Origin: Escherichia coli
Lineage (GTDB): Bacteria > Pseudomonadota > Gammaproteobacteria > Enterobacterales > Enterobacteriaceae
Strand: one strand, 5' to 3'
NCBI RefSeq assembly: GCF_001677475.2
Contig: NZ_CP012498.1
Length of the DNA stretch: 64,000 nucleotides
Made by a program: the position numbers. This document shows positions 33,001 to 39,000 of the stretch, one piece after another. Each line of letters opens with the position of its first letter. Positions within the stretch are counted from its first letter, which is position 1.

Positions 33001-36000
33001 TGCGGCGTAAAAGAGCTCTAAGATACCGCACAGATTCCGGTGGTGGAGTCCATGCCTCAGGCTCTTTAAGGGAGCCATAACAAGCCAGCATCCAGGCATC
33101 GACTTTGTCATTCTTGGTCAGGATATTCATCCCTCTGGCAAATTCCCTTGTACGGTGAGGATTGGCTAAAGAAATTCTGGCGCCAGCAAAGTGAAGGCCA
33201 TAAGCCAGCGGTTCATGATATACCCCAGTGGCTTCCATGATGATATGAACTTCGCCCAGTTCACAGGATTGCTTCTTAAGCCACTCTGTCACGACTTTAG
33301 CCGCATCAGCGGTATTTTTTAGCTTACGAGTTTTGATCCTCCCTTTGATGCCCTCCCGTAAGAGACATAGATCAAGAGTGTTTTTACTGACATCAATACC
33401 TAATTGATACATTGGCATTTTTTCTCCTTTCACATAACCATCACGCCAATTTGTCTTGTTCATGCAGAGTCTTAGCTCTTGGCAACCGTTCAATGTTAAT
33501 GCTGGCGTGAAAGGTGAAGCAGAGGACTATAGCTGTTGACGAAGGTTATTACCTTAGATGATGGGGTAGGTTCTCTCCGCTTCATGCGATGGTAGCTAAT
33601 CATCGCTCGTTGATTACATACAAGATGATGGGGCTGAAAACCTGAGAGAGGAGAAAGCAGGATGAGTACCCGAAATATCCACGTTAACACCGCGTCGTAC
33701 ACGCTTCTTGTTGCCGGGAAGAAAAAAAACACCGGGGAAGAGTGGGACGTCCTGGAATTCAGCAGCCTGACTGAGCTGAAAAAATATCGCAAAAGCCACC
33801 CGGAAAAGATGGCCTTCAGTTATAGCTACGCGCTCAGTCAGGGTGTGGATAAGCAGTTCCGCCATATCAACATTGCGGAAGCCGATCACTTCAAACAGTT
33901 CCTGCGTCAGATTAAGCGTGCCGGCCTCGATATCCGGGCGATCTGCTGACCGGATGTGATGAATATCCCTCCTGATTGTTGCAATCTTGTTAACGGAGAT
34001 CGGGAGGGATGATATTAAGCGGAAAAAATTTTTATTAAATTTATTCTTTCATAAAGGAGTAGCTGTTATGCGATTAGCTTCCCGTTTTGGTCGGTATAAT
34101 TCCATCCGCCGTGAACGTCCTTTAACGGATGATGAATTAATGCAGTTCGTGCCTTCGGTATTTTCCGGTGATAAACATGAGTCCCGGAGTGAACGTTATA
34201 CGTATATTCCAACAATCAATATCATCAATAAGTTACGTGATGAAGGTTTCCAGCCATTCTTTGCCTGTCAGAGTCGGGTTCGTGATTTGGGACGTCGCGA
34301 ATACAGTAAACATATGTTACGTCTTCGCAGGGAAGGGAATATTAACGGGCAGGAAGTTCCTGAAATTATCCTGCTTAATTCACATGATGGTTCATCCAGT
34401 TATCAGATGATCCCCGGAATTTTTCGTTTTGTCTGCACAAATGGCCTGGTGTGCGGAAATAATTTTGGCGAAATCCGCGTTCCACATAAAGGTGATATTG
34501 TCGGGCAGGTTATCGAGGGAGCGTATGAAGTGCTCGGTGTTTTTGATAAGGTCACTGATAATATGGAGGCGATGAAAGAAATTCATCTTAACAGTGACGA
34601 GCAACATTTATTTGGCAGATCTGCACTGATGGTCAGGTATGAAGATGAAAATAAAACGCCAGTGACGCCTGAACAAATAATTACTCCCCGTCGTCGGGAA
34701 GATAAACAGAACGATCTCTGGACAACCTGTCAGCGGGTTCAGGAGAATATTATAAAAGGTGGATTGTCGGGGCGAAGTGCCTCCGGTAAAAATACCAGGA
34801 CAAGAGCCATTACAGGTATTGATGGTGATATCCGAATCAACAAGGCGTTATGGGTGATTGCCGAACAGTTCAGAAAGTGGAAATCATGATAATATAAGTA
34901 AAGCCCCGAAAATTTTCGGGGCTTTACTTATATTATCATTCTTCGGCATCGCTGTGTCGTCTGATATACCTCAATTCCATCAACCGGCTTTCCGGTTGTC
35001 TGTAAATATTGTGCCCGCGAAAAATGGTCTGGCAGGAGGCTGCGCAGTTACCGGGTATATATAAGATGGGTTCCCGCTTCGCGGGGCTTCGGCCAGTCAG
35101 TATTGTCACTCATATGGTATTTTTGTGTGTGGCCTTCCATGCCTCTTTTGCGGCATAACCGGTATCTGACAATGTCTGTAAGATTAATTGTTCTGCACGC
35201 TGTTAATTTCCGGAAGTGATTTCTTCGTGGCCGGAAGCCGGATACCTTTACTGCTTTTTATCCCGGTATAAATCCGGTAAACATCTGATGCGTAGGCAAG
35301 ACGTCTCTGGTTCTGGCGTTCGGTCTTCCTGAATCCGGCATTGTATGCACCAACGGCCTCCCAGGTGACGCCCCATTTTTTAAAGGCTATTGCCAGATAA
35401 TAAGCACCGGTATAAATGTTCATGCAGGGATCTGTTGTCAGATGTTCCGGCTTAATTCCGTAGCGGGCCAGTTCGTTAAAATGCTGGGAGTCTACCTGCA
35501 TCAGTCCGCTGCCATATCCCGTTACCGGATTAATACCGATGGCATTAACCCGGTAACGGGATTCTTTCCATGATATTGCTCTCAGTAAATCAGGATCTAT
35601 TTTGTAATCCCGGCCTGCAAGATCAAAGCAATCAGTGGCCTGGCAGATCTCATTTATAAACATCAGGCAGATGGCTAACATCCATTTTTTCATTTTTCCA
35701 CCTCTGGTGACTTTATCTGTAAATAATTTAACCCACTCCACAAAAAGGCTCAACAGGTTGGTGGTTCTCACCACCAAAAGCACCACACCCCACGCAAAAA
35801 CAAGTTTTTGCTGATTTGCGTTTAATATCATTGAGTTGTATTTGTGGATTTATATTGTTTAAATCTGATTTATTTAAAGCAGCGTCGTTAACGCAGCTAC
35901 AGCAACGCGCCGACACCGCTTTGTAGGGGTGGTACTAACTATTTTTATAAAAAATATTATTTTATATTAGGGGGGCGGCTAGCGGCGCGGTGTATTTTTT

Positions 36001-39000
36001 TATAGGATACCGCCAGGGGCGCTGCTAGCGGTGCGTCCCTGCTTGCATTATGAACTCTAGTGTTTCGAAATTAACTTTATTTTATGTTCAAAAAAGGTAA
36101 TCTCTAATGGCTAAGGTGAACCTGTATATCAGCAATGATGCTTATGAAAAAATAAATGTGATTATTGAGAAGCGTCGACAGGAAGGGGCAAGAGAAAAAG
36201 ATATCAGTTTTTCAGCAACAGCTTCAATGCTTCTTGAACTGGGGCTTCGTGTATATGAAGCTCAGATGGAGCGTAAAGAGTCCGCGTTTAATCAAATTGA
36301 GTTTAATAAATTACTTCTTGAATGCGTTGTAAAAACACAATCATCAGTAGCGAAAATTTTGGGTATTGAGTCTCTCAGTCCTCATGTCTCCGGAAATCCA
36401 AAGTTTGAATATGCCAATATGGTTGAAGATATCCGGGAGAAGGTGTCATCTGAGATGGAACGATTTTTTCCAAAAAATGATGAGAAATAAAAAAGAATTA
36501 AAAGTTGATTTTATTCAAATAACAGAATATTGATCTGGTTCTATTTGATGACAATTAACCACATAACGAGTATATTAATTATGTGGTTAATGCCACGTTA
36601 AAATTTGAACTTGAAAATCGCCGATGCAGGGAGGGACAAGCTCCCTGCATCGGCTGTCCATAGAATCCTTTGAGGAGGTTCCTATGTGTGCGATGGATAC
36701 TAGAGAAAGAGCACTCATACGTCAATCAGGCCTGCCGGAAATTATTTTATCCGCAAAATATCCAGTCTGTGTCCGCACAGAGTCAGGAAAATTCATAGAC
36801 TCAAACTCTGTTTTTTTACACTCAATAAAGTGTCAGAATTGTGATTCTGAAATATGGTTTTCTGGTATTGATATTGATACGCAAATTTTATTTCAGACTG
36901 CTGAAGTTGATGCTTTTTCGTCCTCAAATGGAGTGAGCATTATTAATGGTGTAATATTGAATGATGTATCATGGGATGTGGTGGTTGAAAGAACTGAAGT
37001 GAATAACTTGAATTTGTTTGTCTGGAGATTTTTCGAAAGATACGTAGTTAGTAGCTTTTTTATAAAGGGAAAGGAGTTTTGTTGTGAATCTGATAAATAT
37101 CGCTTTAATAAGATAATACCGTATCTTTTGGGTTATAGTCATGAGTATTCTGCTCAAAGAATGGATGTCTCTATTGACCAATCTAAAAAAATATTTATGA
37201 ATTTTAAAAAACACTATGGTTTCTCAGATAGGGATGAGTGGTTGCGATATGCTATAATTTCTGATGTGTTGTTTTATCTATATCAATACTTCGCGAGTAA
37301 TATTAACAACCTTCACTCTAAAGAAATGTAAGTATTCTCGGCACTAAAAGTGCCGGTTTTTGTCAACGTAATTTACTATTTTGTTGTTTGTTTTGTGTGC
37401 GTCTTATGTAAATATTTTGACTAAATCTCTTTTATTTATGGGAGGGAGGGTGATTAAAGGAGCTTTAAGATCTGCACCAAGTAGAAAGGTTTTACTTACC
37501 CTTGACGAGGAAACGAATAAATTATTACTTGGAGCCAGAGAGCGTAGTGGAAGAACGAAAACAAATGAAGCATTAGTGAGGTTGCAGGATCATTTGCAAC
37601 GTTATCCCGATTTTTATAATGAAGAAATATTCAGGGAGGTGACCGAAGAGAGCGAGTCAACATTTAAAGAGCTTTAGTTTTTATCTATCAATATTAAACA
37701 GAGGAATCATATGGACGCCGTTTTAAGTGTTCAGGGTGCTTCTGCGCCCGTCAAAAAGAAGTCGTTTTTTTCTAAATTCACTCGTCTGAATATGCTTCGC
37801 CTGGTTCGTGCTGTGATCCCGGCTGCTGTGCTGATGATGTTCTTCCCTCAGGCGGCCCTGGCTGCTGGCGGTCAGGACCTCATGCAGTCCGGTAATGACA
37901 CCGTCAAAGCCACCTTTGGTAAGGACTCCAGTATTGTTAAATGGGTCGTTCTGGCTGAAGTGCTGGTCGGGGCGGTCATGTACATGATGACCAAAAACGT
38001 CAAGTTCCTGGCCGGTTTTGCCATCATATCTGTATTTATTGCTATAGGTATGACCGTCGTTGGCCTCTGACAGGAAATAAAACGATGTCGGGAGACGAGA
38101 ATAAACTTAAGAAATATCGTTTCCCGGAAACACTGACCAACCAGAGCCGCTGGTTTGGCCTGCCACTGGATGAACTGATCCCCGCAGCGATCTGTATTGG
38201 CTGGGGTATCACAACATCGAAATATCTTTTCGGTATTGGTGCAGCGGTTCTGGTTTATTTCGGAATTAAAAAACTGAAAAAAGGGCGGGGCAGCTCCTGG
38301 TTACGGGATCTTGTTTACTGGTATATGCCAACAGTCCTGCTTCGCGGTATTTTTCATAATGTTCCTGATTCGTGTTTCCGGCAGTGGATTAAATAGAACT
38401 GATACCTGGATTGTTATATGGAACACGGTGCCCGCTTAAGTACCAGTCGTGTACTGGCCATTGCTTTTATATTTATGTCCCTGCTCATTGTTCTCAGTCT
38501 GGCTGTTAACGTGATTCAGGGGGTGAATAATTACCGCCTTCAGAATGAACAGCGTACTGCCGTGACACCGATGGGGTTTAATATGCCCTTTGCGGTATCA
38601 CAGAACAGTGCTGATGCCTCTTTTTTGCAGCAGATGGCACTGGCGTTTATTGCCCTGCGCCTGAATGTCTCACCGGAAATTGTCGATGCTTCTCACCAGG
38701 CACTTCTGCAGTATATCCGTCCGGGCGCACAGAACCAGATGAAAGTGATTCTGGCCGAAGAAGCAAAGCTCATCAAAAAAGATAACGTGAATTCTGCTTT
38801 TTTCCAGACCAGTGTTCGTGTCTGGCCACAATATGGTCGTGTGGAAATCCGGGGGATTCGGAAAACATGGATTGGTAACTCCGAACCTTTCACTGATATC
38901 AAACATTACATTCTTATTCTGAAACGGGAAAACGGGGTGACCTGGCTGGATAATTTCGGGGAAACAGACGATGAGAAAAAATAAGACACTAATAATATCC

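Follow-up and report, generated by a model that had tools for sequence, protein, structure and literature searches.

The interval studied here belongs to a 64,000-nt stretch of Escherichia coli DNA (hereafter the window) and very probably represents the oriT of an F-like conjugative plasmid (MOBF12 group A, as defined in PMC5102898, and MPF_F), together with the regulatory head of its tra operon; a self-consistent TraJ-subgroup cassette lies here beside an F-type nic. The genes follow the order gene X, oriT, traM, finP/traJ, traY, traA and traL, with both traM and traJ present as open reading frames and family matches, and the families recognised were SLT, Tra_M, TraY and TraA in Pfam, TraJ, TraY, TraM and TraA in NCBIfam, and FinP and traJ_5 in Rfam. 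The first-pass annotation had delimited the region at 35700-36700, an interval that contains oriT, traM and finP, whereas traJ, except for its very beginning, and the entire traY are found downstream of 36700. Four prototypes served for comparison: F (NC_002483), R100/NR1 (NC_002134), pSLT (NC_003277) and, in place of R1 itself (KY749247), the R1-type cassette of pCFSAN004181P (NZ_CP012499), referred to below as the R1-type proxy. The loci fit no single one of F, R100, R1 (by proxy) and pSLT, as had been suspected on first inspection.

The nic site and the relaxase type

The features at the leading side of oriT are the following.

35184..35693, minus strand: gene X (orf169), 169-aa lytic transglycosylase with N-terminus MKKWML (Pfam SLT, 4.9e-22)
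35771..35795, minus strand: nic region of F type, 5'-GCGTGGGGTGT/GGTGCTTTTGGTGG-3' (the slash marks the nick), an exact match to F
35783..35799, minus strand: predicted TraI trans-esterase-domain binding site by homology (F positions -2 to +15), identical in sequence to F

The 25-mer GCGTGGGGTGTGGTGCTTTTGGTGG has a single exact match in the window, at 35771-35795 of the minus strand (0 expected from 100 shuffles), which places the nick between 35785 (+1) and 35784 (-1). The nic strand is thus the minus strand of the window, with GTGT/GGTGCTTTTGGTGG on the strand leading into gene X, as for F-like oriT, and the transferred strand heads to lower coordinates, that is, to gene X and the leading region. 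The early reading of the nic-proximal sequence as that of F was borne out, 65 nt around nic being identical to F; identity to F is 99% from gene X to nic+33, and the gene X protein is 98.2% identical to that of F and 93.5% to that of R100. R100 departs from the window and F at two bases, 35789 and 35791 (GCGTAGTGTGT); its nic core is GTAGTGTGT, from which the window differs, and in the comparison with R100 the nic region of the window did not carry the R100 core TAGTGTGT. The core GGGGTGT, as in F, is not exclusive to F, since it is also found in pSLT and in pCFSAN004181P with its R1-type cassette. The contact positions used to predict the trans-esterase site come from the cryo-EM of the F relaxosome (PMC12117103).

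Downstream, traD reaches past the window end, and the window does not include traI, traX or finO; the relatives L006 and L007 encode both traI and finO. Because traI is beyond the window, an F-type TraI is predicted for this plasmid from its nic sequence and its relatives. Among carriers of the cassette, nic is of F type in six and of R100 type in two. F has TraI type Q193/R201, common to relatives with an F nic and the same cassette such as pCFSAN004179G, whereas R100 has R193/Q201, also found in pMEX01 together with an R100 nic. Harley and Schildbach (2003) reportedly assigned the specificity switch of TraI to residues 193 and 201. A double mutant of F TraI acquires specificity for the R100 site (PMC7826260). 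These sequences indicate that nic and TraI type assort independently of the cassette and co-vary with each other, although TraI is encoded about 27 kb away.

Exchange of a cassette from oriT to traY

The block that distinguishes the window from pCFSAN004181P, its oriT components and its downstream flank are listed here.

35820..37629: exchanged cassette, defined by mismatch columns against pCFSAN004181P
35818..35907: putative group-specific IHFa/TraY-binding arm of oriT (nic +34 to +123), by sequence comparison
35826..35838, plus strand: IHFa-like core TATCATTGAGTTG (nic +42 to +54), one mismatch to WATCAANNNNTTR
35908..36106: F-like TraM-binding (sbm)/IHFb/traM promoter region, site names inferred from the F map
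36107..36490, plus strand: traM, 127 aa, F-type (Pfam Tra_M, 6.2e-55)
37711..38070, plus strand: traA, propilin of 119 aa (Pfam TraA, 9.1e-64)

Mismatches to pCFSAN004181P number none in 35184-35819 and one in 37630-38396, the other 860 mismatch columns all falling within 35820-37629; the two sequences are 98.3% identical over 39-64 kb and 31-90% identical across the cassette segments. The TraA proteins of both are 100% identical (92.4% to F). The corresponding block of pCFSAN004181P is R1-type, and the IHFa and ArcA-site strings of R1 occur in it without change; the TraJ encoded there shares 73.1% identity with pSLT TraJ, and the published figure for R1 TraJ against pSLT TraJ is likewise 73.1% (PMC7303359). 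The original description of a mosaic of specificity determinants therefore holds with respect to the prototypes, the exchange being sharply bounded at 35820 and 37629, but not in the sense of something unusual or mismatched, the allele set being coherent and co-inherited.

Sequence comparison suggests that a roughly 1.8-kb cassette (IHFa/TraY arm, TraM sites, traM, finP, traJ, P_Y and traY) tends to be exchanged as a unit, a tendency and not a rule because the cassette is patchy, with two traM 3'-to-P_J variants in the group and a different TraY arm in pH22. From the TraY arm to traY, conservation across the sampled plasmids is 92-100%, save for the pH22 arm and the traM 3'-to-finP stretch. 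The conserved flanks, made up of nic-proximal DNA at one end and of the traY tail and traA at the other, would allow homologous recombination to shift the cassette as a unit, so that each protein would remain with its own binding site. The cassette, which reaches from nic+36 into the 3' part of traY, lies on a backbone that elsewhere bears an R1-type one; the exchange may have brought the present cassette into this backbone or, in the opposite direction, the R1-type one into the pCFSAN004181P lineage.

Within the cassette, affinities change from one segment to the next. For the IHFa/TraY arm, identity is 51% to F, 59% to R100, 55% to pSLT and 47% to the R1-type proxy; of six plasmids sharing the traJ/traY allele, five have an arm 96-100% identical to it, pH22 being the exception. 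The F IHFa footprint spans +23 to +60 and the F TraY arm +43 to +94 (PMC12117103); the IHFa-like core of the window falls inside that footprint range, and the stretch around it is identical at 19/27 positions to the R1 IHF string given in the same work. Exact-string comparison found neither the R1 abs nor the R1 IHFa string in the window region. The sbm region is 95% identical to F (R100 59%, pSLT 64%, R1-type proxy 39%), and TraM is 94.5% identical to F, 89.8% to R100, 82.5% to pSLT and 78% to the R1-type proxy. The 3' end of traM, from 36422 onward, is R100-like in DNA, and from there to P_J identity is 92% to R100 versus 79% to F.

TraJ, TraY and their promoters

36548..36576, plus strand: P_J, promoter-like site for traJ, ATGACA-17-TATATT, by consensus scan, just 5' of the Rfam traJ_5 start at 36581
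36684..37331, plus strand: traJ, 215 aa, distinct TraJ allele group (NCBIfam NF010276 equivalog)
37338..37356, plus strand: terminator-like hairpin TCGGCACTAAAAGTGCCGG, followed by TTTTTG, directly 3' of the traJ stop codon, by consensus scan
37332..37449, plus strand: P_Y promoter region, presumed TraJ and ArcA target from position and sequence comparison
37450..37677, plus strand: traY, 75 aa from a GTG start (alternative ATG at 37438, giving 79 aa; Pfam TraY, 9.8e-24)

Neither traJ, P_Y nor the 5' part of traY matches any of the prototypes. The divergence of TraJ from that of F, already pointed out, amounts to 25.8% identity, with similar values for R100 (24.1%), pSLT (27.6%) and the R1-type proxy (25.5%). 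The protein matches NF010276 (PRK13719.1-5) over residues 1-215 of 215 with 481.9 bits (cut-off 444), while F and R100 TraJ fall in other NCBIfam models, for which the window protein remains below the cut-offs (39 bits against 252 for the F model NF010275, 26.8 against 442 for the R100-type model NF010272). The N-terminus, at residues 17-119, matches the PAS-domain structure of F TraJ (4KQD, E = 3.5e-8). TraJ activation is allele-specific via the jbs site (PMC7303359). P_Y shows 31-49% identity to the four prototypes (32% to F, 31-35% to R1/pSLT) and 91-99% within the allele group. The hairpin 3' of traJ appears terminator-like, and could alternatively be a protein-binding dyad.

TraY had been considered short, with an R100-like C-terminus. 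Its length was correctly noted (75 aa versus 133 aa in the F annotation), F TraY being the duplicated form of 131-133 aa. The C-terminus, on the contrary, matches R100 at only 12/25 of its last residues, is identical to the R1-type proxy and agrees with pSLT at 22/25; the R100-like part is instead the core, residues 14-50 (29/37 to R100 vs 20/37 to pSLT). Judged from these alignments, TraY is a hybrid, its core resembling that of R100 and its tail that of R1/pSLT. R100 TraY, too, has 75 aa and is similar to it in the DNA-binding core; both fall in NF010300 (145.4 bits for the window protein, cut-off 114), with 61% overall identity between them within a range of 51-63% to the four prototypes.

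FinP and the traJ leader

36581..36689, plus strand: traJ 5' UTR, the FinP target (Rfam RF00243, 121.3 bits, gathering score 50, full length)
36614..36690, minus strand: FinP antisense RNA (Rfam RF00107, 94.4 bits, gathering score 45, full length)
36634..36640, plus strand: loop of stem-loop II, GGACAAG, 7 nt, by loop comparison
36725-36697, minus strand: FinP promoter-like TTGACG-17-TAGTAT, by promoter scan

The loop GGACAAG is the exact reverse complement of CTTGTCC, the loop common to about 95% of the plasmids with the same traJ allele. A like flip occurs naturally in F-type plasmids, with TTCACGT against ACGTGAA in F.

FinP and the traJ 5' UTR lie on opposite strands and overlap the traJ start codon, an architecture shared with F, from which both FinP loops nevertheless differ. 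Since FinP is transcribed from the opposite strand, a flip keeps perfect pairing in cis, whereas in trans the flipped FinP loop would be identical, and not complementary, to an un-flipped traJ loop, so that a single template-switch event could make a new FinP specificity. Only tentatively do we propose, then, that the loop of stem-loop II was inverted in place, allowing escape from the fertility inhibition of a close relative, and that this is a recurrent route of finP diversification. No description of such a loop flip was found in the searchable literature, a scope outside which the finP allele papers of the 1980s-90s fall.

By homology, TraI would cut the minus strand at 35785/35784, IHF would bend the DNA at about +42 to +54, and the 75-aa TraY would bind the arm adjoining the IHF site, with TraM on F-like sbm sites 5' of its own gene linking the relaxosome to TraD. 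The traJ mRNA would be made from P_J and blocked by the antisense RNA FinP with FinO, and any TraJ escaping this repression would turn on P_Y and thereby traY, traA and the remaining operon.

A coherent allele set or a mismatched one

The absence of any single prototype group for the four loci, and the hybrid nature of TraY itself, might be taken as signs of an idiosyncratic and possibly mismatched mosaic, where F nic and TraI stand with foreign TraY and TraJ and the relaxosome or its regulation is altered or impaired, giving an unusual mobilisation compatibility. We regard this as very unlikely. The arrangement recurs at at least 99% identity in 4 PLSDB and 13 RefSeq E. coli records, hundreds of plasmids carry the cassette and almost all of them are classed as conjugative, each protein is co-inherited with its site, and nic type fits TraI type in both relatives examined (pCFSAN004179G and pMEX01). 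Moreover, chimeric oriTs with an F nic and heterologous accessory sites (the R100 TraY/IHF/TraM sites) are reported as functional and usable by F relaxosome proteins (PMC12117103).

Still less probable is that all loci are those of one classical group (F, R100, R1 or pSLT), their divergence stemming from mis-set frames or misread coordinates. TraM, gene X and nic alone would indeed pass as F-type, but TraJ in its correct frame shows 24-28% identity to the four groups and falls in an NCBIfam equivalog of its own, TraY shows 51-63%, and the DNA of the TraY arm and of P_Y shows 31-59%; a single classical allele group was accordingly rejected on TraJ identities, NCBIfam models and segment identities. 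As for a misassembly that joined two F-like plasmids of the same cell, the breakpoints do lie in sequence conserved among F-like plasmids, where assemblers can switch contigs, yet the same junctions occur at 98.8-99.6% identity in pCFSAN004179G, NZ_CP042297.1, CP057156.1, NZ_AP025756.1 and about nine OkiPb plasmids, which leaves this explanation with next to no probability. The preferred reading is thus that of a self-consistent cassette next to an F-type nic.

Distribution and significance of the TraJ subgroup

The traJ DNA allele is present in 248 PLSDB plasmids, predicted as conjugative by MOB-suite in 239. The subgroup comprises pCFSAN004179G, whose cassette is 98-100% identical to that of the window, pMEX01 (NZ_KU695535), roughly 70-kb plasmids of E. 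coli, Klebsiella and Shigella (e.g., NC_013542.1) and enterohemolysin/EspP plasmids (e.g., NZ_CP027588). Identity to the window across the subgroup is 95-100% for traJ, 91-99% for P_Y, 92-100% for traY and, in most members, 96-100% for the TraY arm; in five further plasmids traJ, P_Y and traY are 91-98% identical. Members differ in nic/TraI (F- or R100-type), in the traM 3'-to-P_J variant, in traA and, for most of them, in the un-flipped CTTGTCC loop. All four proteins have exact copies in public databases. The combination of an F-type nic with non-F TraJ and TraY is real, but already present in many sequenced plasmids, and the curated NCBIfam model of the TraJ variant, the allele specificity of TraJ and the TraJ-based subgroups of F-like plasmids are already known.

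All components and the principle having been described earlier, nothing fundamental changes. The window and pCFSAN004181P form a near-isogenic pair that offers a clean natural example of a whole specificity cassette swapped, from nic+36 to the traY tail, and such a swap explains why F-like plasmids are grouped differently by TraJ and by relaxase. The loop flip is the only element that might give a small new insight into the origin of fertility-inhibition specificities; if true, it would represent a one-step, recurrent path to finP allele diversification that evades inhibition by a close relative. The practical value lies in typing: the nic/TraI type would tell which helper relaxase nicks this oriT, with the prediction that F-type TraI recognises the nic and R100-type TraI does not, whereas the TraJ/FinP/TraY cassette would help to predict which co-resident plasmids cross-activate or cross-repress transfer.

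Layout of the transfer region

The interval stands at the start of an F-type transfer region, in which pilus and mating-pair genes follow traL as far as traG, traS and traT. Since traD, which starts near 62252, runs off the end of the window, traI, traX and finO are not contained in it. The first-pass annotation had placed the traJ/traY allele set at 35700-36700, an interval that leaves out nearly all of traJ and the entire traY.

Features of the head of the transfer region
35184-35693, minus strand: gene X (orf169), SLT lytic transglycosylase, 169 aa
35694-36106: intergenic oriT
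36107-36490: traM
36548-36576, plus strand: promoter-like hexamers of P_J, in the expected place
36581-36689, plus strand: traJ 5' UTR (Rfam, 121 bits against a gathering score of 50, full-length match)
36614-36690, minus strand: FinP (Rfam, 94 bits against a gathering score of 45, full-length match)
36725-36697, minus strand: promoter-like hexamers of FinP, in the expected place
36684-37331: traJ
37332-37449: P_Y region
37450-37677: traY, 75 aa
37711-38070: traA
38085-38396: traL

The longest ORF of gene X (35184-35831, minus strand, 215 aa) spans the nic site, and RefSeq gives this long form for several relatives. More likely is the 169-aa protein that begins with MKKWML, which agrees with the historical name orf169. 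Between a DUF932 gene and gene X lies a perfect palindromic terminator-like hairpin, AAGTAAAGCCCCGAAAATTTTCGGGGCTTTACTT (34894-34925), which caused sub-threshold Rfam matches to His_leader and RsmY at 34818-34967 that were rejected. Upstream of oriT, the leading/maintenance region includes ParM (19480-20487) and is rich in mobile elements (23819-25330 and 29418-31085, both on the minus strand, 21677-23928, 32432-33493 and 6299-7818), among them two group II intron reverse transcriptase/maturases, an IS21-like pair, an IS110-family transposase and an IS3-family element. At the other end, the gap between traT and traD holds two inserted ORFs without a Pfam match, 60605-61216 (203 aa) and 61597-62199 (200 aa), at a position where only short hypothetical genes are annotated in related plasmids.

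A cassette exchanged on a common backbone

The window was compared with F (NC_002483), R100 (NC_002134) and pSLT (NC_003277), with R1 represented throughout by plasmid pCFSAN004181P (NZ_CP012499). The latter is usable as an R1-type proxy because it contains the exact R1 strings quoted for the IHFa site (PMC12117103) and the ArcA site (PMC7303359), and because its TraJ is 73.1% identical to that of pSLT, the same figure as published for R1 (PMC7303359).

Identity of the window to the prototypes, by segment (nic+n, position counted from the nick)
35184-35817, gene X to nic+33: F 99%, R100 96%, pCFSAN004181P 100%
35818-35907, nic+34 to +123: F, R100, pSLT and R1-type proxy, 47-59%
35908-36106, sbm sites and traM promoters (F map): F 95%, others 39-64%
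traM codons 1-105: F 96%
36422-36612, traM 3' end to P_J: R100 92%, F 79%
traJ, P_Y and 5' three-quarters of traY: all prototypes 31-65%
traY tail onward: R1/pSLT-like, pCFSAN004181P 98-100%

Identities to the four prototypes thus differ by segment, and the mosaic originally proposed was correct in substance. Comparison with pCFSAN004181P revealed no mismatch over 35184-35819, a single one over 37630-38396 and 98.3% identity over 39-64 kb, whereas the other 860 mismatch columns all fall within 35820-37629, so that a block of ~1.8 kb must have been exchanged on an otherwise common backbone. This cassette runs from the IHFa/TraY arm through the sbm sites, traM, finP, traJ and P_Y into traY, most of which it includes; whether the window's lineage or that of pCFSAN004181P is the recombinant one cannot be told from the comparison of the two.

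The same cassette was found in other plasmids with this traJ/traY allele, at 98-100% identity in pCFSAN004179G and at 89-100% in every segment of pLR-21-1_2 and 2013C-4974. Segments of pMEX01, pRHB36-C07_3 and LR882059 are 92-99% identical, save the stretch from the traM 3' end to finP (81-89%), and those of pH22 87-98%, save the TraY arm (74%). The cassette is itself patchy, since 36422-36612 has two variants within the group: the R100-like one (92%) of the window and some members, and a second one (~80% identical) in pMEX01, pRHB36-C07_3 and LR882059.

The nic site, its relaxase and the adjoining arm

The F-type nic string reported from the first reading is indeed present, as one exact copy on the minus strand (35771-35795) with none expected by chance. 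The nick position is 35785/35784, from which the transferred strand extends, as in F, in the direction of gene X and the leading region. F is identical to the window across 65 nt around nic, whereas R100 differs at two bases (GCGTAGTGTGT; window 35789 and 35791) and pSLT has the GGGGTGT core in common but different flanks. Among eight carriers of the traJ/traY cassette, six have an F-type nic and two, pMEX01 and 2013C-4974, an R100-type one.

TraI residues 193 and 201 are reciprocally different between F and R100, and Harley and Schildbach are said to have identified these, in 2003, as the specificity-switch positions. The F-type nic of pCFSAN004179G is accompanied by a TraI with Q193/R201, as in F, and the R100-type nic of pMEX01 by one with R193/Q201, as in R100. 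An F TraI double mutant was reported to change its specificity to the R100 site (PMC7826260). Nic and TraI therefore assort separately from the cassette, yet match each other in these two relatives; for the source plasmid itself, whose traI is outside the window, we infer an F-type TraI.

In the structure of the F relaxosome, TraI touches positions -2 to +15, the IHFa footprint extends from +23 to +60, and +43 to +94 is taken up by three TraY molecules (PMC12117103). Over the positions contacted by TraI, the window is therefore identical to F. Divergence starts within the IHFa footprint, where an IHF-like core, TATCATTGAGTTG, is retained at +42 to +54, and covers the TraY arm, as expected with a different TraY.

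TraM, TraJ and TraY alleles

Identity of the window's proteins to the prototypes
TraM: F 94.5%, R100 89.8%, pSLT 82.5%, R1-type proxy 78%
TraJ: F 25.8%, R100 24.1%, pSLT 27.6%, R1-type proxy 25.5%
TraY (75 aa): F 51% (to the C-terminal repeat), R100 61%, pSLT 60%, R1-type proxy 62.7%

As had been noticed, TraJ is clearly divergent from that of F. It belongs to a variant-specific NCBIfam equivalog, NF010276 (481.9 bits, cut-off 444), whereas the F and R100 proteins belong to NF010275 and NF010272, respectively; at E <= 1e-10 no NCBIfam TraJ model was found for the pSLT or pCFSAN004181P proteins, despite the existence of a 228-position TraJ subfamily model. A Pfam search gave no family matching TraJ, and its N-terminal half is homologous to the solved PAS-like domain of F TraJ (4KQD, E = 3.5e-8). 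A repeat search of P_Y gave no inverted repeat, and jbs was not found there.

TraY is short, as first described, but the R100-like C-terminus attributed to it did not hold, the one detail in which a largely right annotation has to be amended. Residues 51-75 match pSLT at 22 of 25 positions and R100 at 12, and the C-terminal 25 residues are identical in the R1-type proxy, which also has a 100% identical TraA; on alignment, this end is R1/pSLT-like and not R100-like. Over the DNA-binding core (residues 14-50), 29 of 37 positions agree with R100, and NCBIfam places the window TraY with R100 TraY in equivalog NF010300, and those of pSLT and R1 type in NF010302.

A reverse-complemented loop in FinP

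On the sense strand, stem-loop II of the FinP/traJ leader reads CGCCGATGCAGGGAG-GGACAAG-CTCCCTGCATCGGC (hairpin about 36619-36654, loop 36634-36640). In pMEX01, 2013C-4974, pRHB36-C07_3 and LR882059 the same arms enclose CTTGTCC, exactly its reverse complement; some 95% of the plasmids that carry this traJ allele have the latter form. A 201-nt query was covered to 80% or more in 245 plasmids, of which only 13 were at least 99% identical, with the window-type loop, and 232 were 95-99% identical; among these 232, the matches listed stand at 96.0%, a value that fits the flipped loop and one further base change. Window position 36653 is G, against A in all compared plasmids, which yields a perfect 14-bp stem at the base of the hairpin and possibly arose by templated (quasi-palindrome) correction.

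Leaders of F, R100 and R1 type were also built with the loop reverse-complemented and used as queries. The flipped F leader matched 10 natural F-type plasmids at 99% or more, the examples retrieved having loops TTCACGT and TTCACGC against ACGTGAA in F. The flipped R100 leader had no such counterpart in the 645 R100-type records that cover 80% or more of the query, and the R1-type one gave no match in an R1-type set too small to count as evidence; a pattern scan of genome contigs for FinP stem-loop II hairpins gave 13 matches, mostly irrelevant. In-place inversion of the loop appears the most parsimonious explanation. Judged from base pairing, it would keep FinP complementary to the traJ mRNA in cis, whereas in trans the flipped FinP loop would be identical, not complementary, to an un-flipped target loop. 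No published account of FinP loop inversion was found in the literature open to search.

Proposed working, distribution and significance

Alongside the directly observed sequence features, homology and co-inheritance, the literature on F, R1 and R100 suggests how the cassette would work. TraI would nick at 35785|35784, IHF and TraY would bend and organise the adjoining arm, and TraM would bind the sbm sites, tying the relaxosome to TraD. FinP with FinO would block traJ translation (PMC3105414), and TraJ with ArcA would lift the silencing of P_Y, whose activation via the jbs site was demonstrated to be allele-specific (PMC7303359).

An F nic beside a foreign accessory set could be read as a dysfunctional combination, but the evidence argues against it. 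The specificity pairs TraY/arm, TraM/sbm sites, TraJ/P_Y and FinP/traJ leader are all inside the cassette and travel together, so that its exchange breaks no cognate interaction; nic/TraI is the sole pair split across the plasmid, and it is matched in the relatives examined. Moreover, chimeric oriTs joining the F nic to R100 accessory sites were reported to be functional with F proteins (PMC12117103).

The traJ DNA occurs in 248 PLSDB plasmids (205 Escherichia, 23 Shigella, 14 Klebsiella and 6 Salmonella), 239 of them typed as conjugative, and the wider region is matched by ~4,700. The entire 3-kb arrangement is at least 99% identical in four PLSDB records, and over a 4.5-kb stretch 13 RefSeq E. 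coli records, most of them of cattle origin, reach this level. The exact proteins were already public, TraJ in 436 contigs, TraY in at least 1000, TraM in 95 and TraA in 346, and a proposal divides F-like plasmids into nine TraJ-based subgroups (PMC7303359). The region is thus a standard, already catalogued F-like allele cassette on an F-type nic/TraI backbone, and its interest is low because modular exchange with allele specificity is an established principle. Only the inversion of the FinP loop is possibly worth a small follow-up, as a change that may, from its sequence, alter FinP specificity in one step.
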